Of a stretch of 64,000 nt of DNA, positions 46,862 to 64,000 are shown one piece after another. Positions within the stretch are counted from its first letter, which is position 1; each line of letters opens with the position of its first letter. The notes beneath the pieces were generated by a model, which had not been told where the DNA came from, did not search any database, and saw only the letters and a program-made list of their open reading frames with translations. Origin of the DNA: Exceevirus Xc38 (lineage: Duplodnaviria > Heunggongvirae > Uroviricota > Caudoviricetes > Schitoviridae); IMG/VR virus record IMGVR_UViG_2974723840_000001, positions 15,329 to 79,328 of that record; one strand, written 5' to 3'. The position numbers were made by a program, and so were the translations under genes.

Positions 46862-47030
46862 ATGTGTTGTGATAATTCATGATTAGACCTTTAAGGTCGT
46901 TAACGTCTGTGATTGGAAGTTGACTCTTGATTAGTTCCCAAGAGTCATCTAATGAATCTGATACTGTGTATAGAGGTACAAATTCTGGTTTGATCTTACT
47001 TGGCATTACTACCTTTTCTTGCCTTAACAA
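46818..47030 (-). CDS. Hypothetical small protein, 70 aa.
   Basis: ORF only. Confidence 0.3.
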   Translation of the reverse strand: MLRQEKVVMPSKIKPEFVPLYTVSDSLDDSWELIKSQLPITDVNDLKGLIMNYHNTFVVEKDKQNESNNR

Positions 47031-47283
47031 CGAAGTTCTGCAACTTCTTCAAAGTGTTAAGACCTTGAGCTTCCAAGAAGTTGATCATTGATTCGTGAGT
47101 AGGTGACATGTGGCCTTTTAATTTAACTAAGCCTTCGTCTGCCAATGCACGGCGAATTGTGATCTCTGCTACGTTAAAACGTAATGCTAACTCACGTTGA
47201 GTCATACGTTCTTTTTTAGGTAGCTTCCATTCAGCAACAACAAGTTTGATTTCAGCAGGTGTAAGAGATTTTTTAACTTTCAT
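46996..47283 (-). CDS. Helix-turn-helix DNA-binding protein; putative transcriptional regulator.
   Basis: MTQRELALRFNVAEITIRRAL is a classical HTH. Confidence 0.5.
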   Translation of the reverse strand: MKVKKSLTPAEIKLVVAEWKLPKKERMTQRELALRFNVAEITIRRALADEGLVKLKGHMSPTHESMINFLEAQGLNTLKKLQNFVVKARKGSNAK

Positions 47284-48388: not shown

Positions 48389-48763
48389 TCATCCTCTTGG
48401 CTTGCTCAATTCTTTAATGCCTTCATTGTAGGCATCCTTAATGATAGCTGCAAGGTATTCCTCACGAGCTTCTTTAGGTACTAATTTGATTGCTTCAAAC
48501 ACATCCTGTGGGATGGTTATAGCACGTTTAAAGTGCATGTTGTTTCTGCTCTCAGCATAGAACTCTACAATAGTTCCATCTGAAAGAGCTAATACAGATA
48601 TCATGGTATATCTAGGAGTGCCTAAGTGATTGTACGTAGTGAAATAGAACTTATCTATATCTATAGACAACTCATTCAATAGGTTTAGCACATTCCTGTT
48701 GTTTTCAACATAACAATATGCATCTATCGATTCATCAGCATGTACTGTTGGTAGGATTGACAT
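48389..48763 (-). CDS. Member of the small early paralogue family (C-terminal LxLxPxEAR..YL motif).
   Basis: C-terminal VFEAIKLVPKEAREEYLAAI. Confidence 0.5.
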   Translation of the reverse strand: MSILPTVHADESIDAYCYVENNRNVLNLLNELSIDIDKFYFTTYNHLGTPRYTMISVLALSDGTIVEFYAESRNNMHFKRAITIPQDVFEAIKLVPKEAREEYLAAIIKDAYNEGIKELSKPRG

Positions 48764-49106
48764 CTGATTCCACTCCTAATAATTCCTGTTCCCAAGCATC
48801 TGTAAGTGCTTCACGAACCCCCTCATTAGGTAGTAAAGACAGTTCAATGACTTGATCTACTGATAGTCTTAGACGCGGTAGTCTGTTTAGTTTGTGAAGA
48901 CTTATAATCCTTCTGGTTTCAAACGAGGCTATGGTAAAAACTCTATCTCCCTTTCTGAGGTCAGTAATTGAGTGATGATAGTAACCATGATTGACTATAA
49001 GCTCAGCAGCGTCATCTGTTTCTATGTAATAACCAGCCATAACCACCTCAATGTGCGAAGCACATCGCTTCATGTAATAACTTTGCGGAGTGCATAACAT
49101 CAGCAA
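48735..49106 (-). CDS. Member of the small early paralogue family.
   Basis: ELIVNHGYY and DQVIELSLLPNEGVREAL match the paralogue at 49048..49380. Confidence 0.5.
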   Translation of the reverse strand: MLMLCTPQSYYMKRCASHIEVVMAGYYIETDDAAELIVNHGYYHHSITDLRKGDRVFTIASFETRRIISLHKLNRLPRLRLSVDQVIELSLLPNEGVREALTDAWEQELLGVESDVNPTNSTC

Positions 49107-49380
49107 ACTGATTCCAGTTACTGTCTATAAGAACATGTCTACTATCTGCTGTTGGTAGAACCATCAGCTCAAGTACTTGGTCTGTGTTTAATTCAATGAA
49201 GGGAACTTCACTAATAATAAAGCTACTGATTCGTTTTCTCTTTATAAACACTTGGAACACAGGAGCTATATACTTCTTATCAATAAAAGCAGGAAACTTT
49301 CTCTCACTGAGGGTGAACTGGAAACCATGGTTACCAATAAGCTCATGAGCTGTTTCTGCTGTTATGTAAAATGATTCCAC
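49048..49380 (-). CDS. Member of the small early paralogue family.
   Basis: HELIGNHGFQ and DQVLELMVLPTADSRHVL. Confidence 0.5.
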   Translation of the reverse strand: MESFYITAETAHELIGNHGFQFTLSERKFPAFIDKKYIAPVFQVFIKRKRISSFIISEVPFIELNTDQVLELMVLPTADSRHVLIDSNWNQFADVMHSAKLLHEAMCFAH

Positions 49381-49425
49381 AATAATCTCCTACAGAAGAA
49401 AGCCTATCCGAAGATAGGCTATTTG

Positions 49426-50322
49426 TTACTTCACTGCACCTAGGGCACTGAACTTCTCTGGTACGATAACCATAGTATTCAATGTTCCTTTCTCTGCAGC
49501 TTTAAGCAACGCTTGTGATTTGATCAACTCAGCTTCTGCACGTTGTAAATCAATGTATTTCTCTGAAGCATTTTCAGCTAATACACGTTTTACTTCTGTT
49601 TCCACCTTAGCTGTCTCTAGCTCATTCTGCTTTGTTTTCAAAGCGTTCTGGCTATTAACGATTGCTAAAGATGAAGCAACAATTGATGCATGCGGTTTAA
49701 CTTCAAGTACGTTAATTTCATTAACAGTAACGAAGCGGTCTTTACCTGCAAGTTTGAGACGCTTATTAAGTTCATCCTTAATAGCAGCTTCAATTGCTGT
49801 ACGGTTATCATTGACCTCTAATGCCTTGTACTTGCTTACAGCAGTTTGTACAGAAGCATCAGTAATATCACTGATGTATTTACCTAACAGCATTACTTCA
49901 CCATCATTTTCTAAGTTCTGAGATTTCTCAGTCTTATAGGCAATGGCAGCATTTGCAGGAACAATACCGTAGTTGATCTTTGTAACGAAAGCAGCCATAG
50001 GCACTTTCTCTACAGTGATCGGATTGGTTTGAACTGTAAGGATTAGGTTACGTTTGGATACCTTGGTTACATCACCAATTACTACTTGGTGAAAGCCTTG
50101 GTCTAATACCTTGTCTTCAATCTCACCAGAGAATGTAGTACGAATACCAACTTCAGCATCAGTAACTTTGGTTACCGGGCTGCAAGCAGATAAAGCAATT
50201 GACATGGCTACCGCGCAGCCTAATGCGATTTTACGAAGCATCGTTATTTCCTTTACGCTTGTTAATGAACTTATCGACAGTTGAGTACAGCAACCAAATA
50301 AGGAATACAATGGTTCCTCCAA
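49426..50322 (-). CDS. SPFH/band-7 (stomatin/prohibitin-like) domain lipoprotein.
   Basis: A likely start at the internal Met gives the signal peptide MLRKIALGCAVAMSIALSAC with lipobox LSAC. The SPFH-like core is EVGIRTTFSGEI...GFHQVV. The C-terminal region is coiled-coil. The gene overlaps an upstream small membrane protein gene. Confidence 0.55.
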   Translation of the reverse strand: MEEPLYSLFGCCTQLSISSLTSVKEITMLRKIALGCAVAMSIALSACSPVTKVTDAEVGIRTTFSGEIEDKVLDQGFHQVVIGDVTKVSKRNLILTVQTNPITVEKVPMAAFVTKINYGIVPANAAIAYKTEKSQNLENDGEVMLLGKYISDITDASVQTAVSKYKALEVNDNRTAIEAAIKDELNKRLKLAGKDRFVTVNEINVLEVKPHASIVASSLAIVNSQNALKTKQNELETAKVETEVKRVLAENASEKYIDLQRAEAELIKSQALLKAAEKGTLNTMVIVPEKFSALGAVK

Positions 50323-50494
50323 TGATTACGATAGGCCACACAAGGCCGCCTACTACTGTCAATACAAAAGCACAGAACCAAATGAACTCAGTTTCACGTG
50401 AGTCACGAAGTGGAGGGTAGTGTTTAATTAACAGAGCACAAGTAGTGCCAATAAGGATCATGAAGATAATGGTTACTAACCAGTATGCGTTCAT
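50231..50494 (-). CDS. Small polytopic membrane protein; possible NfeD-like partner of the SPFH protein.
   Basis: Two to three TM helices. Immediately upstream of and overlapping the SPFH gene, matching the bacterial nfeD-SPFH operon order. Confidence 0.4.
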   Translation of the reverse strand: MNAYWLVTIIFMILIGTTCALLIKHYPPLRDSRETEFIWFCAFVLTVVGGLVWPIVIIGGTIVFLIWLLYSTVDKFINKRKGNNDAS

Positions 50495-50778
50495 TTCATT
50501 TGTTCCTTCCTGAGAGGGAGTAAGTAACTAGGCCAGGCTTTAGGGTCAAGTAGCATCAAGGCATAGACATCATGAGCTTTAATCTCTACCTCATCAGGAG
50601 GGTTATCTCTCTCTGCTACGGTCATGAGATAAGCAGCCCTAGGATACACATGGTAACCAATAAAGGTACTACCTCTAGTGAATCTGTCATCTGTTTCCCA
50701 ACCCTTACGTATGAACTCAGCAGCTTCTGATTTGCTAATGAATAAAGCCATGGGATAGTTCCTTTTAAATTGACTCAT
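50491..50778 (-). CDS. Hypothetical protein, 95 aa.
   Basis: ORF only. Confidence 0.4.
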   Translation of the reverse strand: MSQFKRNYPMALFISKSEAAEFIRKGWETDDRFTRGSTFIGYHVYPRAAYLMTVAERDNPPDEVEIKAHDVYALMLLDPKAWPSYLLPLRKEQMK

Positions 50779-50867
50779 ACATGGTGGCTGCTCTCATGAG
50801 CTGTGATGGGTCTGTAGTTCACACCACCATGTACTTTAGTTAGTTGATTAGTCTAACTTGTCAAAAC

Positions 50868-51071
50868 TTATTTACCCTGATTAATAGTTACACCAGCAGC
50901 TTTAGATTCATGTTCAGCAATCGTAATACGTGCATTACGCTCTGCTTCAATGTCTTTACGCAACTGAGCAACTTGACCTTCAAGAGTAGCAGCCAATTGA
51001 GCATTTGCTTTTGCTGTAGCAGCGGCTTGTTGTTGAAGAGCGCGAACTGAATTATCAATAATTTGTGACAT
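50868..51071 (-). CDS. Small coiled-coil protein, 67 aa.
   Basis: A/Q-rich helical ORF. Confidence 0.35.
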   Translation of the reverse strand: MSQIIDNSVRALQQQAAATAKANAQLAATLEGQVAQLRKDIEAERNARITIAEHESKAAGVTINQGK

Positions 51072-51911
51072 GGGATTATCCTTTTAAAGTTGTCATCGAA
51101 ATTAAGCAGAATTGCTTAGGTGAACTGTCTAAGTAGGCTAGATAATCCTGCAAGATTAGAGCTAATACCTACCACTGAGTAGTTGCAGCTACTAGTAACA
51201 CCTTGTCACTTCCGTCTTCAGGGGAAGGCAAGATAGCCAGATCAGTTCGCCTAAACAATCATGGTGGCAGAGTTCCCCGGAGTCGAACCGGAATAGATAG
51301 TCATTACACAGTACTTTCAAGCGCTATTATTACTACTGTCTTTATATCTACCGTGCCTAGCCTTCAGTACCTTCGCACACTTACATGCATTTCAGTGTGT
51401 TACGCGATACGGCAACGGAACCCCATAATGGTGAGGGGAGACTTAGCAATTGCAAAAGCATAAGTTGTCTACTCCCCTCATAAGGAGCGGGCCTATGGAT
51501 TCACATAGGGATCATCCCGCATAAAGTGGATACTGGCAGGAATCGAACCTGCGAATGTTTTCTGTCCCACGTTTCGATTTCTCTACTAAGCAGCGCCGTG
51601 ACCATCTGTGGCTACAGTATCCATTAGTTGACCACCTATAAGTGATACACAATTAAGACCTCCTTTGAATATCTTAACTGTCATATAGGTGATCAGTGAA
51701 TCATTCCCTTTGCCATTTACTTGACGCAATTGCCTCTGGAATGTGAGGGATAAAGAGTTGCCGTCTCATTGATCTCTTTATCAACCCCTAATGTCCTACA
51801 GTGTAGGCTTCGGCTTTGGGGAGAATCTGGGTGGCAGTTTTTATACAGCTTCTGCCAAACTGTTGTTGTACGTCCTTCGGCCATTGTCGGGTGAGGTGAC
51901 CTTCTCGTACA
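51072..51911 (-). ncRNA. ORF-free, about 840 nt, structured region containing tRNA-like T-arm elements on the minus strand; candidate tRNA-like or other ncRNA locus.
   Basis: Minus-strand GCAGG-UUCGAUU-CCUGC is a perfect T-arm (forward about 51536-51552). A perfect 7-bp acceptor-like pairing GAUACUG/CAGUAUC spans about 51528-51621. A second T-arm UCCGG-UUCGACU-CCGGG is followed by GCCA (forward about 51262-51294). No clean 76-nt cloverleaf could be built by hand. Confidence 0.3.
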
Positions 51912-52115
51912 TTACTTACTAACACCTACAAAAGGAGCTAGATTATCGAGAGCTGTATTAACCTGCTCAGAAGCTGCTTTCAACTTACGTTGATGTTCTT
52001 CTGCTGCTTTGGTTTCAGTTTCGATATCAGCCTTAAGAGCTGTTAATTCTGTGTGAGCCTTTTTAAAGCCAGCCATTGACTTGTTAAAGCGATCACTAAA
52101 GTTACTATTAAACAT
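51912..52115 (-). CDS. Small coiled-coil protein; start reassigned to the ATG at 52115 with the RBS AGGAAATC.
   Basis: The ORF track start is upstream. The internal ATG has a good SD. Confidence 0.4.
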   Translation of the reverse strand: MFNSNFSDRFNKSMAGFKKAHTELTALKADIETETKAAEEHQRKLKAASEQVNTALDNLAPFVGVSK

Positions 52116-52164
52116 CGTGATTTCCTGTTTTGGTTTAAGGGCAAAGCGCAACAGTGACCGAAGG

Positions 52165-52449
52165 TCACTTACGAATGAATGTACTGAGATATGAACAGAT
52201 AGCTTCACTAGGAATTAGAGATAACTCATCCAGGTGACACTTCTTAAAAGAAATGTGTCTACCCATGTTGATTAGACTAGTAGGTAGAATCTCCATTTTC
52301 TGACCATTTTCTGTAAAGCAAAGAGTAAAAAATTTGCTATTAGAAAAGCGATTATAAAAAATGTTTTTACTGTCTCTATTCATGTGATCAAAAAAGAACT
52401 TATTTCTAACATCACTGTCTTTTATTACTATGTATGCAAATGTTTTCAT
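52165..52449 (-). CDS. Member of the small early paralogue family.
   Basis: C-terminal LDELSLIPSEAICSYLSTFI. Confidence 0.45.
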   Translation of the reverse strand: MKTFAYIVIKDSDVRNKFFFDHMNRDSKNIFYNRFSNSKFFTLCFTENGQKMEILPTSLINMGRHISFKKCHLDELSLIPSEAICSYLSTFIRK

Positions 52450-52739
52450 TTAGCGAGTCCTAGTACAAAGTTTAGTTTAGCTTCTGTATTTCTACCTAAG
52501 AGTGCGAAGATACTTCGCAGATCTTCTGGTATAGGTATAGACTTCTTTTCTGTCTTTAACAGGTTAAACACGATTGATTTTTGTTTTGGTTTGACAATCA
52601 GATACTCGTATGTATTCATGTGTCTACCACGAGAACTAAAATTAACATCCCAATCAAGTTCTGAAAAAATATCTAGAACCCAGATCCAGTCTCCTTTTCT
52701 AAGCTCTAACTGTATATAGTTAGGTAGTCCCTGTTCCAT
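52446..52739 (-). CDS. Probable member of the small early paralogue family.
   Basis: C-terminal IPIPEDLRSIFALLGRNTEAKLNFVL. Confidence 0.4.
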   Translation of the reverse strand: MEQGLPNYIQLELRKGDWIWVLDIFSELDWDVNFSSRGRHMNTYEYLIVKPKQKSIVFNLLKTEKKSIPIPEDLRSIFALLGRNTEAKLNFVLGLAK

Positions 52740-53052
52740 CTTTGTATAACTCCTCTAAATAGATAAGAACAGCTTCTTTAGATAAAAGCTCTATCTCCTT
52801 AATTCTGTCTAGGCCTATGTTTGCAAATTTTCTAGACCTAGCTTCTTTAATGGAATAGAAGTCAGCATTAGGATTGTCATCATACAGGGCTACAGATATG
52901 TATGCAGCATTCTGATTAAAGTGAATACAACGAAATCCTTTATCTAATAAAGCACTTCTAAGTTTCATTCTTAGATCTAAGTTACGAAGACAAAACATGT
53001 ACTTCTTAAGCACCTTGGGTTCTCTAATACCATTAATGGCAGATGTAATCAT
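52720..53052 (-). CDS. Member of the small early paralogue family.
   Basis: C-terminal IKEIELLSKEAVLIYLEELY. Confidence 0.45.
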   Translation of the reverse strand: MITSAINGIREPKVLKKYMFCLRNLDLRMKLRSALLDKGFRCIHFNQNAAYISVALYDDNPNADFYSIKEARSRKFANIGLDRIKEIELLSKEAVLIYLEELYKDGTGTT

Positions 53053-53125
53053 AAGTCCTCCTATTGGACGAGAATCATGCCGAATCCTCGTCCTAATAAA
53101 AGGAAAGGGGATTACTCCCCTTTAC

Positions 53126-53779
53126 TTATATCAAAGCAACTAAGCGGATACGTGGCTTTGGTTCATGCTGAGCAGGGCCTTCAGCGCACTCACCAACACA
53201 ATCATCAAAGTTAACTGATTGCTGTGGTGGTGGATTCTGGCGTTCGTATTCAGCACGATAAGCAACTTCTGCTTGTTTACGTTGATATTCAAGTTTAGCT
53301 AGACGATTAGCGTCTTCACGCTGTTTAGTTTCACGCTTAACTTTTTCTACTTTGCGAACCAAGAGATCATCTTGATATGCATGGAACTCAGCAAATAAGC
53401 CTTTCTTCGCATCGAATAAAGATAAGATCTTTTCTTCGTCTGATAAGTCAGATGCGATTACTGCAGCAATTTTGTGAGATAACTCTTCAGCGTTAGAAAG
53501 GATACAGTCTTCAAGAGACATATCACCTACTTTACGAAGAGTACGTGATGCTTGTTCCATTGAGAGATTCTCAACTTCACCTAACACACGGTAATCACCT
53601 TTAGATTCCCAACCTAAAGCACCAAAGATGGGCTTATCTAGGAAGCTAACGAGTACTGATTTACCGTTGGCAGATTGAACAGCAACCCAGTTGTGATGAG
53701 CTGGCAGTTCAACAGTTCCACCCATGTAATCAACTGTACGAACTTCTTCATCTACCATGTTTACTTCAACAAATGACAT
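53126..53779 (-). CDS. Hypothetical protein, 217 aa, with a charged coiled-coil C-terminal half.
   Basis: ORF with KVEKVKRETKQREDANRLAKLEYQRKQAEVAYRAEYER. Confidence 0.45.
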   Translation of the reverse strand: MSFVEVNMVDEEVRTVDYMGGTVELPAHHNWVAVQSANGKSVLVSFLDKPIFGALGWESKGDYRVLGEVENLSMEQASRTLRKVGDMSLEDCILSNAEELSHKIAAVIASDLSDEEKILSLFDAKKGLFAEFHAYQDDLLVRKVEKVKRETKQREDANRLAKLEYQRKQAEVAYRAEYERQNPPPQQSVNFDDCVGECAEGPAQHEPKPRIRLVALI

Positions 53780-53816
53780 ATATTTTTCCTTGGTTTAAAT
53801 TTAAAGAACAAAGCGC

Positions 53817-54092
53817 TCAAGCATCCGAAGGATGCCCAAACATGGATTCAAGCATAATATTAAGAGTTTCAACTGATGGCAGCAACTCAAGTTCAAACAC
53901 TTCCTGTAGGTACAGCACTCTGTGCTCTGGCTTAGGATTGCCTGCAATAGCTCTTCTCTTTTCTGTGTCTAATACTAGACCTAAAAAATCAAAAGAATCC
54001 AAGTCTCTGTATATTACATAGTTGTGCTTTTCTAGCAGTTCTCTAAACCGCTTAATAGGTACAGAGGATCTGCATTGTAAGTAAATAATCAT
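53817..54092 (-). CDS. Member of the small early paralogue family.
   Basis: C-terminal QEVFELELLPSVETLNIMLESMFG. Confidence 0.45.
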   Translation of the reverse strand: MIIYLQCRSSVPIKRFRELLEKHNYVIYRDLDSFDFLGLVLDTEKRRAIAGNPKPEHRVLYLQEVFELELLPSVETLNIMLESMFGHPSDA

Positions 54093-54370
54093 CTTAACAC
54101 CGTATATAAGAGTGGTAGTGTATGAATGTCCTTAAACGTAACTAGCGTAACTGAAGGTACGAAACTATTAATAGCCTTACCTTTACTCCAAGCTGTCTGT
54201 AGAGACTGATCGTCAATCCATAGATATAAGAACCCTTTAGCTGATATAGATGGTGGCATTCCCTCATCAAAGTTAAGGTTCTTAAAAGTACGCATAAGCT
54301 CTTTAATGGCTTTATCGTAGTTATCACTATGTAGAGGTATTAGTACTCGTACTGTCTTTGTTGTCGCCAT
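54089..54370 (-). CDS. Hypothetical small protein, 93 aa.
   Basis: ORF only. Confidence 0.35.
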   Translation of the reverse strand: MATTKTVRVLIPLHSDNYDKAIKELMRTFKNLNFDEGMPPSISAKGFLYLWIDDQSLQTAWSKGKAINSFVPSVTLVTFKDIHTLPLLYTVLR

Positions 54371-54650
54371 TGAATAGTCCTCTTAAGTCAGCACCTAGTC
54401 TATGAGCAAGAATATAGGATGCTAACTCTTCATTAGTGTCTACTAAGTGAATACCTAATATGCTTCGTAGTGATATAAAGTTAGCACTAAGGTTACCTGT
54501 GGTTAGGGAATAGAGCATCAGTTCGTAGTCTGATTTTACATCGTAAGGCATAACATCAGGATAAGGATTATCACCTAAAGCTTTCATAAGCTCTTCCGGT
54601 ACATACTTCTCCATAGGTATACCTATGTATGTGTATTTCATTATGTTCAT
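54327..54650 (-). CDS. Hypothetical small protein, 107 aa; possible divergent family member.
   Basis: ORF with a weak EELASYILAHRLG resemblance. Confidence 0.35.
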   Translation of the reverse strand: MNIMKYTYIGIPMEKYVPEELMKALGDNPYPDVMPYDVKSDYELMLYSLTTGNLSANFISLRSILGIHLVDTNEELASYILAHRLGADLRGLFNGDNKDSTSTNTST

Positions 54651-54653
54651 GGT

Positions 54654-55028
54654 TTATGTATCCTGTCTCTTCTTAACTCCACTCACTAGCTCATCCATAC
54701 ATAGCAGATGCTTATACACGTGTTCAGTTATTAAAAACTCTTCCCATAGATACTCAATACGTGCTTTCGTTGTAGGTAATACAAGCAGGGCAGGTAAGTA
54801 TTTAATACGAATGAATGGATTATCACTACTTACGTAGCTTCTGCCTACTGCAGCATGCGTATTTAGTTGAACACCTATGTATGGAGCAGCTTCAGGAATA
54901 TGCTCTATATAGCTGAAACCAAGTCTACTAAGCTCAGCTATATTTTCAGGATTGTTTGATATAGATACTTCATAGCACATGACTGTCTTTCCTCCCGCTC
55001 TTAGATCGTTAGTTAAAAAATAAAGCAC
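54654..55028 (-). CDS. Member of the small early paralogue family.
   Basis: C-terminal LPALLVLPTTKARIEYLWEEF. Confidence 0.45.
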   Translation of the reverse strand: MLYFLTNDLRAGGKTVMCYEVSISNNPENIAELSRLGFSYIEHIPEAAPYIGVQLNTHAAVGRSYVSSDNPFIRIKYLPALLVLPTTKARIEYLWEEFLITEHVYKHLLCMDELVSGVKKRQDT

Positions 55029-55058
55029 TAAACCCTCCGGAGGAGGGTCAGTGTTTAG

Positions 55059-55409
55059 TTAGTCAAAGTCACAGTGTCCACCTCTAGCTCCATATCGAAT
55101 GGATTTGAGGTATTGGAATCTAGCTTCACGAGTTGGAAGCATAGCTACTTCTAAAGCTATTTCATCCTTGGTTCCCATGTACAACCCTCTTTGAGCAGAC
55201 AGGAAATTAGTCATTGGATAGTAGTAGCAAGTACCACTGAATCCATCCATTGTTGTAAGATACCACAAGCCATCAACATCTAGACCTAAATCAATAAGCT
55301 TTATAGCAGTATCGTATTCAACAGGTATACGTGTGTTATTAATACGAGATAGCTTTATAGAGTCAAGCAACTCTGCAGCTATCTGTTCAGTTACTGGATC
55401 ATAGCTCAT
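55059..55409 (-). CDS. Member of the small early paralogue family.
   Basis: C-terminal DEIALEVAMLPTREARFQYLKSI. Confidence 0.45.
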   Translation of the reverse strand: MSYDPVTEQIAAELLDSIKLSRINNTRIPVEYDTAIKLIDLGLDVDGLWYLTTMDGFSGTCYYYPMTNFLSAQRGLYMGTKDEIALEVAMLPTREARFQYLKSIRYGARGGHCDFD

Positions 55410-55716
55410 TTAGATACACCTCTCTTGCTTCAAGTGTTGGGATGAGTGATACAGCTAACGCCGTATCATCATCAGTATCAGGTATAGCACTAGCACTGGT
55501 GGCTAGTACTACATTTGCTGTGGGTAAGAATATAAAGATGACGTACTCACTCGTATCTCTTAAGAAGATGCGCATCATATGATGCTCTTCCGCTCCTTGT
55601 GTTATTAAGTTGTTTGCACACGCATGGGTTATGTATATACCTCTGAAATTATTCAATAACCAATTAACTGATTGGTTCTTGAGGTTATCTTGTGGTACTT
55701 CTTTAGCAGATTGCAT
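55399..55716 (-). CDS. Member of the small early paralogue family.
   Basis: C-terminal DTALAVSLIPTLEAREVYLNEL. Confidence 0.45.
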   Translation of the reverse strand: MQSAKEVPQDNLKNQSVNWLLNNFRGIYITHACANNLITQGAEEHHMMRIFLRDTSEYVIFIFLPTANVVLATSASAIPDTDDDTALAVSLIPTLEAREVYLNEL

Positions 55717-56296: not shown

Positions 56297-56372
56297 ATCT
56301 ATATCCTAATGAATAAAGGGGATCTTTTAATCCCCTATTATATCTAACTATTTAACAGATGTTAAGTAGTTA

Positions 56373-57196: not shown

Positions 57197-58023
57197 CATG
57201 GTGTTCTTGTAAGTTCGTTAAGCTTACAACGGAAATCCTATGTCTCTCGACATTGGCTCCTGCTATATATTTCTATATAGATCAGACTATATCTTCATCC
57301 TCATAAGAGGAGTTCTGCGCTTCCGCTCACTTGAGCGTACTCCTAGATAGGATAGTCGTTACACGTTCTGTTCAACTACACGCTGACACATAGATATAAA
57401 TTGATCCATAGTCAGTTCACCTTTAGCTCTATTAATTGCCCAAGCAACCCATTGTACGTTACCTTTCACATAACCAAGTTCAGGTACGATCTTGTCTAGT
57501 GATAGGCACTCTAATGAGCCTACTTCAACTTTTAATACAGTTTTAGCAATAGCACATAAACCATTTTGTGACTTGTACAGTTCATACAAGTAATCCTTGT
57601 CTAAATCACATTCAGGTAAACCTGATTTTTTGGTTCGTGTTTTTGCATCAGTGAGTCTTGCACCAATTGCTGAGTATAGTAATCTATCCTCTTTAGGAAT
57701 CTTAGTTAGCGCACCAGAACCCCTATAATTAGGGTTCTTCTTACGCCACTCTCTAGCTTTTTCAGCTAAACATTCCTTACATTGGTAAACCTTATGTTCT
57801 TTGTAGGCATTCTCATTAGATGATTTGCCAAACTGATCAATAGGTTTCTCAACATTACACTTGGTGCATATTTGTGTGATATTCATAACTTCAAACTCTT
57901 AAGTAGGTTATGAATAGTTTAACAGCTTCGCACGGGATTGTCTTCGTCTTTCACGGTCAGAGGTTCCCCGTTTTCACAGAATTGCATATATCTAGTTACC
58001 TAGATAGTGACCCCTTTAGGTTA
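57197..58023 (-). ncRNA. Group I self-splicing intron (about 827 nt) with an internal HNH homing-endonuclease ORF, interrupting the RNAP II large-subunit gene in motif B.
   Basis: P1 pairs exon UGACCU| with the intron IGS GGGUCA (intron nt 11-16), giving a U.G wobble at the splice site. P/Q-like (P4) elements are present (GAAAACGGGGAAC and AAUCCCGUGCG). P7 is present (GACUAU at about 57351-57361, AUAGUC at about 57283-57293). The S element AAGAUAUAGUC is present. The intron ends in G at 57197. Splicing restores RKDVKRAVMT-SGYGS with the T7-like K(+8)Y spacing. Confidence 0.7.
57359..57886 (-). CDS. Intron-encoded homing endonuclease (HNH / His-Me finger, Endo VII-like).
   Basis: N-terminal CTKCNVEK...CKEC zinc ribbon is present. 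A C-terminal LSLDKIVPELGYVKGNVQWVAWAINRAKG HNH-like beta-beta-alpha finger is present. It lies wholly inside the intron. Confidence 0.55.
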   Translation of the reverse strand: MNITQICTKCNVEKPIDQFGKSSNENAYKEHKVYQCKECLAEKAREWRKKNPNYRGSGALTKIPKEDRLLYSAIGARLTDAKTRTKKSGLPECDLDKDYLYELYKSQNGLCAIAKTVLKVEVGSLECLSLDKIVPELGYVKGNVQWVAWAINRAKGELTMDQFISMCQRVVEQNV

Positions 58024-58447
58024 AGGTCATTACAGCTCGCTTTACATCCTTACGTGGTACTTCAATCTGATTGAAACCCTTAAGCTTAAGGATCTCATTC
58101 ATCTTCTTAGTAACGTCTGTATATGCATCTGCACGTTTCTCTGTTACGAGTCCTGTAGCATCTGCACCTTTCACACAACCTGTAATAGCTGACATGATCT
58201 GAATACCAGAACACGTAGCATCAAGTTGTACGATATGACCTGTTGGTTTGCCTTCAACTACGTTACGTAGCTCATGAACTGCTTTGATGAATAATGGCTT
58301 ATCCTCTGCGGTATCAGCTAACTGCTCTAATTGAGCATAGTTATCTTTAACCCATTGGATTCGTTGCTCGAATAACCACTTATCTTTACCGTAGTGGTTA
58401 GCGATATCGATGCAAAGGTAGTCTAGAGCTGAGTATGGTTTGAACAT
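58024..58447 (-). CDS. N4-like RNA polymerase II large subunit, exon 1.
   Basis: Own RBS GGAGAAACACC. LDATCSGIQIMSAITG matches T7 DGSCSGIQHFSAML. It ends RKDVKRAVMTLT*, i.e. in the middle of motif B (RxxxKx7YG). Confidence 0.7.
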
Positions 58448-60506: not shown

Positions 60507-60618
60507 GATTGTATTCCTTGAAGAAGATTAACGGCGACAATGCCACTTAAAAGCGTAGCGTTCTTTTAAAGCTACCGTGATGGTGGTGCTACCGCGAAGG
60601 GCTTAAACACGGTATTAA

Positions 60619-62970: not shown

Positions 62971-63100
62971 AGTGTTTAGTTCCGTTTAGGTTTATCAAAG
63001 ATAATAGGTAAAGTGTAGGTAAGCAGACTTGTCTGCACTAACAGATGTAAATACTCATGTTTAGTACTTATCTCTCTTACTCCCTATATAAGCGTAGCTA

Positions 63101-63152
63101 TTCATAACCTATGGTTAGATGATTCATAACTAAAAGTTTGATCATTCATAAC
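63101..63152. repeat. Three direct repeats (consensus GAT[GC]ATTCATAACTA) spaced exactly 22 bp apart; iteron-like.
   Basis: TTCATAAC occurs at about 63101, 63123 and 63145 with conserved flanks. A long AT-rich tract at 63226-63265 is adjacent. Confidence 0.5.
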
Positions 63153-63903: not shown

Positions 63904-64000
63904 TCCATCTATAAGCGTAGCGATTACCTCTTGAGTAAGAATCCTTTTTCTAACGAGACATAGGGGGGAGGGTACTAAGATAGATCGAAGGGGGAGTAGA

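Follow-up and report, generated by a model that had tools for sequence, protein, structure and literature searches.

A clade-restricted tandem family of ten small paralogous proteins between the RNAPII and ATPase genes of Acinetobacter phage vB_ApiP_XC38

Lineage-specific expansions of small accessory proteins are already known in viruses. The multigene families MGF110, MGF360 and MGF505 of African swine fever virus (ASFV), as well as the Bcl-2-like and ankyrin families of poxviruses, have host-range and immune-evasion roles. Among phages, the T-even ip loci are clusters of small, highly variable proteins countering host restriction, and the proteins directed against CRISPR, restriction, the cyclic-oligonucleotide-based anti-phage signalling system (CBASS) or Thoeris are 80–130 residues long, lack conserved domains, have a narrow phylogenetic range and turn over quickly; the loci that encode such anti-defence functions usually mix unrelated families. 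Here we analysed a stretch of 64,000 nucleotides (the window) that is 100% identical to the genome of Acinetobacter phage vB_ApiP_XC38 (NC_055823.1; 79,328 bp; Schitoviridae, genus Exceevirus), with window positions, used throughout, corresponding to record positions minus 15,328. The window contains a tandem array of small genes belonging to a single family, whose reality, constraint, distribution and possible role we describe below.

The array occupies the gp66–gp83 region, with all genes on the minus strand, and lies between the genes of the two-subunit phage RNAPII (gp85–gp89) and a module encoding a MoxR-like ATPase, a helicase and a DNA polymerase (gp61–gp55). In GenBank, gp66–gp83 carry the label 'hypothetical' except for gp66 ('HCP-like protein'), and the neighbouring gp84 is an HNH endonuclease. 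An original prediction had listed ten open reading frames (ORFs) of this region as an expanded family of at least ten early proteins sharing a C-terminal motif, in a phage of roughly 70 kb. The listed ORFs are all present where it placed them, in a genome that measures 79.3 kb. Ten ORFs indeed constitute one real paralogous family, nine of the listed ones together with gp71 (Table 1), which amounts to 10 of the 97 annotated XC38 genes and 4.1% of the 79-kb genome.

Membership was assessed against the 180 ORFs of at least 50 residues found in the six frames of the window, about 170 of which are non-members. In the leave-one-out tests, a profile hidden Markov model (HMM) built from the remaining members was searched against these ORFs for each of 11 candidates, and eight of the 11 outranked every non-member. 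Composition-preserving shuffles reached the real score in only 0–2 of 1000 cases for all ten accepted members (p ≤ 0.002). A full-length HMM derived solely from the related genomes At2 and nACB1 returned the ten XC38 members as the exact top 10 of the window ORFs, and a motif HMM from the same two genomes placed nine of the ten above all non-members. With a motif-only HMM the ten members scored 19–28 bits, the best non-member of the 180 ORFs reaching 4.4 bits. XC38 profile matches in At2 and nACB1 were in turn found exclusively on the coding strand and within the RNAPII-to-ATPase interval.

Pairwise BLASTP comparison of the listed ORFs yielded few clear pairs (gp67–gp68, E = 2.4e-11; ORFs 55059–55409 and 55399–55716, E = 2e-4). 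The N-terminal ELI(V/G)NHG(Y/F) block that had been pointed out in the ORFs at 48735 and 49048 is real (BLASTP E = 2e-11). The shared motif also withstood profile–profile alignment of the orthologue groups with hhalign, which revealed pairs with probabilities of 94% (gp67–gp68), 93% (gp82–gp83), 87% (gp67–gp79; E = 3.9e-6) and 76% (gp68–gp81), besides weaker links (E 1e-3 to 1e-2) extending to gp66, gp75 and gp77. For gp71 no significant pairwise hhalign link was obtained, and its membership rests on the family-level tests. As this previously unlisted ORF passes them, the count of at least ten members stands, with the signature supported by HMM, shuffles and hhalign for nine of the ten ORFs first listed. 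The remaining one, 52446–52739, failed every test (leave-one-out rank 127 of ~170; 662 of 1000 shuffles reaching its score; no hhalign link). Two further candidates were not accepted: the marginal gp80 (shuffle p = 0.027, 27 of 1000; iterated HMM E = 0.06–0.13; no hhalign link) and the unannotated ORF 54089–54370 (396 of 1000 shuffles).

The numerous BLASTP E-values above 0.01 and the many non-significant hhalign pairs could be taken to mean that there is no family at all, the motif having arisen in small AT-rich ORFs by chance or from their composition, or marking a DNA element at the gene ends. We give next to no weight to this explanation, which for the ten ORFs is already refuted by the leave-one-out ranks and shuffles, the cross-genome HMM that recovers exactly ten members, the new members in the metagenomic genome L010 (described below) that lay outside the training set, a structural cross-match to independently predicted models, and the synonymous motif codons, variable distance to the stop codon and lack of DNA repeats between paralogues. 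It is still the best reading for ORF 52446–52739.

Table 1 Genes and features of the gp66–gp83 array in window coordinates. LOO, leave-one-out HMM search; shuffles, number of composition-preserving shuffles reaching the real score; aa, amino acids.
Feature	Status	Position	Strand	Properties	Tests and orthologues
gp83	member J	55399..55716	−	105 aa; C-terminal motif ALAVSLIPTLEAREVYL	LOO E = 1.4e-4, rank 1; shuffles 0/1000
gp82	member I	55059..55409	−	116 aa; motif ALEVAMLPTREARFQYL, followed by invariant tail RYGARGGHCDFD	LOO E = 6e-4, rank 1; shuffles 0/1000; tail conservation 0.97; orthologues P0005, P0006, P0010, P0018, P0021, P0022
gp81	member H	54654..55028	−	124 aa annotated, 108 aa from 54980; motif LPALLVLPTTKARIEYL	LOO rank 1; shuffles 2/1000
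gp79	member G	53817..54092	−	91 aa; motif VFELELLPSVETLNIML; most divergent accepted member	LOO rank 5; shuffles 2/1000
gp77	member F	52720..53052	−	110 aa; motif IKEIELLSKEAVLIYL, Ser replaces Pro	LOO E = 6e-4, rank 1; shuffles 0/1000; orthologue P0025 has Pro
gp75	member D	52165..52449	−	94 aa; motif LDELSLIPSEAICSYL	LOO rank 1; shuffles 0/1000; At2/nACB1-only HMM E = 5.8e-5
gp71	extra member	50491..50751	−	86 aa; motif VYALMLLDPKAWPSYLL, degenerate, D-P replaces P	LOO E = 0.004, rank 1; shuffles 0/1000; rank 9 with At2/nACB1-only HMM
gp68	member C	49048..49380	−	110 aa; N-terminal block HELIGNHGF; motif VLELMVLPTADSRHVL	LOO rank 2
gp67	member B	48735..49040	−	101 aa from annotated start	LOO E = 3e-5, rank 1
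gp66	member A	48389..48763	−	124 aa; motif VFEAIKLVPKEAREEYL; annotated 'HCP-like protein'	LOO rank 1; shuffles 0/1000; top match of At2/nACB1-only HMM, E = 1e-6
gp76 ORF	non-member	52446..52739	−	97 aa extended; conserved real gene	
gp80	marginal, not accepted	54327..54650	−	107 aa	
Terminator-like hairpin		56317..56336	−	8-pair stem and T-rich tail (consensus scan)	

The members are separate genes under purifying selection, rather than artefacts of a longer gene or a nucleotide element. Every one of them ends in a stop codon of its own, a Shine-Dalgarno sequence precedes the start codon in most, and the ratios of nonsynonymous to synonymous substitution rates (dN/dS) for orthologues in three metagenomic relatives (L002, L008 and L010) were mostly 0.04–0.5, which disposes of the concern that the ORFs might be out-of-frame artefacts. 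Within the motif, all synonymous codons for Leu, Pro, Ala and Arg are used; the motif lies 12–39 codons from the stop, and no DNA repeats were found between paralogues. A DNA element as the origin of the motif was rejected on these three observations, and the synonymous codons and lack of repeats, together with the dN/dS values and the Shine-Dalgarno sequences, place the constraint on the protein and not on the DNA.

These data also bear on the idea that the genes are near-neutral or selfish passengers, that is, copies which recombination has multiplied in a permissive slot and which now have little function. Such an origin would fit the abundance of mobile elements in the slot, which include the HNH endonucleases gp84 and gp86 and a putative intron interrupting the RNAPII gene, as well as the confinement of the family to one small clade. 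However, purifying selection acts on nearly every member, the reading frames are intact in six genomes, and the fold signature is kept despite only 15–25% identity, implying long maintenance, which together render this explanation improbable.

Several start sites in the array deserve attention. The gene gp67 most likely starts at 49040, which is preceded by the Shine-Dalgarno sequence GAGGTG, with none before 49106, and its orthologues begin with MAGYY; the version 48735–49106 used in the original prediction adds 22 N-terminal residues that are probably untranslated. For gp81, an alternative start with a Shine-Dalgarno sequence at 54980 may be the correct one rather than 55028. Beyond the family, gp76 is annotated with 58 residues (52446–52619), but probably from a wrong start: a strong Shine-Dalgarno sequence (GAGGAG) accompanies the 97-residue ORF at 52739, gene calls in relatives give the same length, and the dN/dS values versus its orthologues are 0.14–0.18. 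ORF 54089–54370 (minus strand, 93 residues) is a real gene absent from the XC38 record, though not a member of the family; its Shine-Dalgarno sequence is good, gene calls in relatives include it, and it is conserved in L002, L008 and L010 with dN/dS values of 0.05–0.13. The annotation can thus be corrected on several counts: nothing supports calling gp66 'HCP-like', the record lacks one conserved gene, and the start of gp76, possibly also that of gp81, needs revising.

The shared signature reads h-x-[EA]-L-x-[LV]-[LIM]-P-x(1,2)-E-A-x3-Y-L-x2-L (h, hydrophobic). In an alignment of 24 non-redundant members drawn from three genomes, conservation was highest at the Pro (21/24), the Tyr (19/24) and the Glu and Ala of 'EA' (17/24 each), followed by the leucines of 'L-x-L-L-P' and 'Y-L' (16–17/24) and the Gly ending the N-terminal helix (14/22). 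Most members additionally share an N-terminal block, [YF]-[IV]-x4-A-x-E-L-I-x2-G-[FYW], of which gp67 and gp68 display the strongest version. The conserved columns consist mostly of Leu, Ile, Val, Ala, Tyr and Pro. The paralogues otherwise share 15–25% identity and span isoelectric points from 4.2 to 9.4; no transmembrane-like segments were found in the members, consistent with soluble proteins.

Within orthologue groups, the identity was 0.68 before the motif, 0.79 in the motif and 0.80 in the paralogue-specific tail following it. This contrast was strongest in gp68, gp79, gp82 and gp83; the gp68 orthologues are 0.49 identical before the motif and 0.87 in the tail, with a highly variable central segment. 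In gp68, gp79 and gp82 the tails after the motif are the most conserved part among orthologues (0.87–1.0 identity; MHSAKLLHEAMCFAH, FGHPSDA and RYGARGGHCDFD being examples), and relatives differ almost throughout the central strand region of gp68 and of gp79, which has been replaced.

AlphaFold2 models were built for gp67 and gp83 using family alignments. The gp83 model (predicted local distance difference test score, pLDDT, 75.8; predicted template-modelling score, pTM, 0.68) comprises an extra N-terminal helix, a strand (27–29), a helix (31–39), a β-hairpin (58–64/69–75) and, at the C-terminus, a helix (83–90), an 'IPT' turn and a last helix (95–104). The gp67 model shows the same order of elements with low confidence (pLDDT 61). 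In these models, the signature begins late in one helix, continues through a proline turn and reaches into the final helix, a predicted helix-Pro-helix hairpin in a small α/β domain. Searching BFVD with the gp83 model by Foldseek, the only confident matches were the XC38 110-aa and 86-aa proteins, both at a probability of 1.00 although with TM-scores of only 0.46–0.53; the 86-aa protein, equal in length to gp71, was the second match. As the BFVD models of these two other XC38 proteins were predicted independently, the match gives tentative support to the common fold that had been proposed for the family, at the level of predicted structures. Since the conserved residues are hydrophobic with helical spacing, they most likely pack the two C-terminal helices on the sheet, so that the motif would be a fold determinant and not a common active site.

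Searches against described families returned no assignment. In Pfam, PHROGs, NCBIfam and PADLOC, no family exceeded the threshold for any of the ten members, no family was consistent across 33 members from four genomes, and no PHROG was common to more than two of the 33. In the comparison with defence and anti-defence proteins, which covered the PADLOC and PHROG functional families, the only match was a stray one to Cas6b (E = 0.008). A profile search of all PDB sequences yielded nothing at E ≤ 10, and Foldseek matches of the gp67 model in the PDB had E ≥ 0.7. When 1.84 billion cluster representatives were searched exhaustively with HMMER, 11 proteins were retrieved, each of them orthologous to an XC38 member; among 5.8 billion proteins, word-indexed searches found only orthologues from the same small clade, and an IMG/VR search with the single protein gp82 found no relative. 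The family is therefore new and without detectable relative, and it is undescribed in the literature searched; the publications on XC38 and nACB1 included there make no mention of paralogues or duplications.

A number of specific identities were considered and discarded. The annotation of gp66 as an HCP-like or Sel1-repeat protein has no Pfam match above threshold, and a resemblance to the antitoxin-like UPF0175 family (PF03683) remained at 12.2 bits versus a cut-off of 27.9 (E = 0.15) and concerned gp66 only, one of 33 members. No helix-turn-helix (HTH) Pfam match was found in the 33 members, in which the helix after the proline is often acidic. The recurrent Foldseek matches to β-α-β-β-β modules of the dsRBD or VOC type were weak and gave no significant superposition.

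The number of copies differs between relatives, as determined by an iterative profile search with E < 1e-3. Alongside the 10 members of XC38, we counted 11 in L002 (77.8 kb), 11 in L010 (76.6 kb) plus one at E = 1.2e-3, 7 in L008 (78.4 kb) plus one at E = 6.7e-3, 9 in At2 and 5 in nACB1, in all five relatives exclusively on the coding strand and inside the RNAPII-to-ATPase interval. Copy number in the relatives thus varies from 5 to 12, with gains, losses and local tandem duplications. Close relatives keep their orthologues in the same order; L010 and L008 lack gp71, L008 also lacks gp77, L002 has an extra gp83-like copy, and L010 carries a local tandem expansion of gp81-like genes (28–38% identity) together with one copy lacking a BLAST match. 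The members in At2 and nACB1 are mostly recognisable by profile only. Within one genome pair, the identity of 'orthologues' ranges from 30% to 100% in neighbouring genes, which points to mosaic exchange or uneven rates of change. The family was not found in N4, Vibrio phage pVa5 or Presley. It is confined to a small phage clade and behaves as a set of accessory genes.

The pattern of gain and loss is informative on whether the proteins act jointly, as interchangeable subunits of a hetero-oligomer that assemble through the shared hydrophobic helix hairpin and form one machine instead of ten effectors. Hydrophobic residues occupy more than one face of the predicted helix α2 (L/V, L and L/I at consecutive turns), the genes are arranged in overlapping, probably translationally coupled runs, and orthologue order is kept among close relatives, all of which would suit such an assembly. 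An obligate complex, however, would poorly tolerate the gain or loss of single members, and precisely this is seen with gp71 and gp77 missing in L008 and extra copies in L010 and L002, so that we regard a joint machine as unlikely.

The slot that houses the array is an accessory region, as judged from the content of the same interval in N4, which encodes a Hoc-like protein, a superinfection-exclusion-like protein, a membrane protein, a lipoprotein and an endonuclease, and from XC38 gp69, an SPFH/Band 7 lipoprotein (phrog_200), preceded by a gene encoding a small hydrophobic protein. The terminator-like hairpin of Table 1 immediately follows the RNAPII large-subunit gene and precedes gp84 and the array, probably marking a boundary between transcription classes; further terminator-like hairpins follow gp79, gp78 and gp69 in the consensus scan, and the Presley record contains a depositor-annotated terminator at the corresponding site. 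The early genes of N4 end with those for RNAPII, and RNAPII transcribes the genes downstream of them. Because the array starts after the hairpin, and by analogy to N4, its genes would probably be of the middle class, which is at least as likely as the early class to which they had first been assigned.

The position of the array raises the alternative that its members act on the phage's own machinery, as cofactors or regulators of RNAPII, SSB or replication proteins, with the C-terminal helix hairpin serving as a common docking surface and the variable part tuning timing or the choice of promoter or template. The RNAPII genes immediately precede the array and the replication module comes after it, orthologues are most alike in the C-terminal motif and tails, and the helix-turn-helix-like geometry of the gp83 model (83–90, 95–104) could in principle bind nucleic acid. 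Core cofactors, though, are normally single-copy and conserved family-wide, whereas these genes vary in number from 5 to 12 and do not occur in N4, pVa5 or Presley, although all three phages have the same RNAPII and ATPase. Moreover, the charge of the members varies from strongly acidic to basic, no HTH family was matched and the conserved residues are mostly hydrophobic. On balance we consider a role in the phage's own machinery rather unlikely.

Several features of the surrounding region were noted in passing. The best sigma-70-like promoter match of the region (56337–56365, minus strand; TTAACA-17-TATAAT, 11/12), a consensus match only, falls in the gap that separates the RNAPII gene end from the hairpin, just upstream of the HNH gene gp84. 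The RNAPII large-subunit gene is split by an 827-nucleotide insert (57198–58024, minus strand), with residues 1–141 of the intact 415-residue orthologue encoded at 58447–58025 and residues 142–415, contiguous with the former, at 57197–56376. The insert holds the endonuclease gene gp86 (57359–57886) and a full-length but sub-threshold match to the group I intron family RF00028 (57263–57455; 38.2 bits versus a gathering score of 50, E = 6e-7). The gene is intact in L002 and L010 and, going by gene calls only, appears to be split elsewhere in L008. Within the array, ARAGORN reported a 97-nucleotide tRNA-like gene with an irregular four-base anticodon (51526–51622, minus strand), for which no Rfam tRNA was found at E ≤ 0.1, and the stretch 50800–52100 has a low coding density; nACB1 and At2 have four and one tRNA genes, respectively, in the RNAPII-to-ATPase interval. 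Between the array and the ATPase gene, gp63 (46996–47283, minus strand, 95 residues) has weak, sub-threshold matches to the helix-turn-helix families GntR (E = 0.002) and Sigma70_r4 (E = 0.009) and may be a small DNA-binding regulator. Towards the genome end, in the presumed early region, a short repeat (~TATAAGCGTAGC) occurs in three copies (60540–60560, 63081–63102 and 63904–63925) and is a candidate regulatory site such as an early promoter.

The reading that we prefer, at a probability of about 0.45, is that a single scaffold was duplicated and diversified into independent binders or inhibitors of host or defence factors. The ten genes would be old, strongly diverged duplicates of a gene for one soluble single-domain α/β protein of ~90–120 residues, with a short strand, the 'ELIxxG[FYW]' helix, a β-hairpin or small sheet and the C-terminal helix-Pro-helix hairpin in this order. 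The conserved helix-Pro-helix core would hold the scaffold together, while the sheet, loops, net charge and C-terminal tails vary between copies. Residing in an accessory slot and probably transcribed as middle genes, copies would be gained, lost and locally duplicated, and each small binding or inhibitor protein would be aimed at a different factor, either of the host for takeover or of its defence. Membership, protein-level constraint, clade restriction, copy-number flux and the lack of a known homologue are established grounds of this reading; what we infer is that the motif serves in the core, to which expression class the genes belong and that the proteins act as binders. Four points weigh against it. 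The dN/dS values show purifying selection and no obvious arms race, and no member matches known anti-defence, takeover or regulatory proteins. The AlphaFold2 models, in which the motif is presumed to be buried, are of only moderate confidence, and the expression class rests on consensus hairpin scans and the analogy to N4.

The equivalent slot of Presley (KF669658; 9772–12679, plus strand) contains a different paralogue family, consisting of Presley_22 and Presley_24–29. Seven of its eight candidates passed the leave-one-out search (E 2e-11 to 2e-6, each at rank 1), and Presley_23 was not supported (E = 1.8). As in XC38, the copies follow the RNAPII large-subunit gene and a terminator and precede the ATPase gene, and the seven tandem copies of ~95–135 residues share a C-terminal signature and otherwise low identity. 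The signature itself differs ([WY]-x-[EQ]-h-x-A-[RK]-x-[NK]-L-[LI]-G), and homology between the two types was not detected: the hhalign probability was 0.2%, the Presley HMM found no ORF of the XC38 clade at E < 0.3, and the XC38 HMM matched no ORF of Presley at E < 0.1. Neither type was found in N4 or Vibrio phage pVa5. The presence of different families in the equivalent slot suggests that Acinetobacter Schitoviridae tend to build paralogue arrays in this place. A bolder version, which we hold to be doubtful though worth stating, is that a dedicated 'arsenal slot' exists directly downstream of RNAPII in these Acinetobacter phages, in which a small fold is repeatedly duplicated into 5–12 effectors, the XC38-type and Presley-type folds, seemingly unrelated, having expanded independently and the former representing a new fold and a programmable binder scaffold directed at host defence or host physiology. 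The occurrence of a different expanded family in the Presley slot would provide a general, testable rule on where these phages keep their fast-evolving accessory genes. If the members are diversified inhibitors, they would furthermore offer a compact natural series of variants on one scaffold with which new targets, in the host or its defences, could be found in Acinetobacter, whose pathogens are a priority for phage therapy.

Compared with the described systems, the XC38-type proteins resemble small anti-defence proteins in size, lack of conserved domains, narrow phylogenetic range, quick turnover and location in accessory early or middle regions, without a sequence or fold match to them in the libraries searched; the mixed families of anti-defence loci differ from the ten paralogues of one family seen here. 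With the T-even ip loci they have in common a variable cluster of small proteins sharing a short conserved segment. In T4 this segment is an N-terminal capsid-targeting peptide that is cleaved, whereas the XC38-type segment is C-terminal and predicted to belong to the folded core, and the XC38-type genes, unlike those of T-even ip, sit among non-structural genes. The families of ASFV and poxviruses are eukaryotic viral systems with other folds and demonstrated functions, in contrast to the XC38-type family, which is known from sequence and models. They nevertheless share with it the lineage-specific tandem expansion of one fold, predicted in the case of XC38, in a variable region, the flux in copy number and the diverged surfaces, and, should the 'arsenal slot' hold true, it would be the phage counterpart of these poxvirus and ASFV multigene families.

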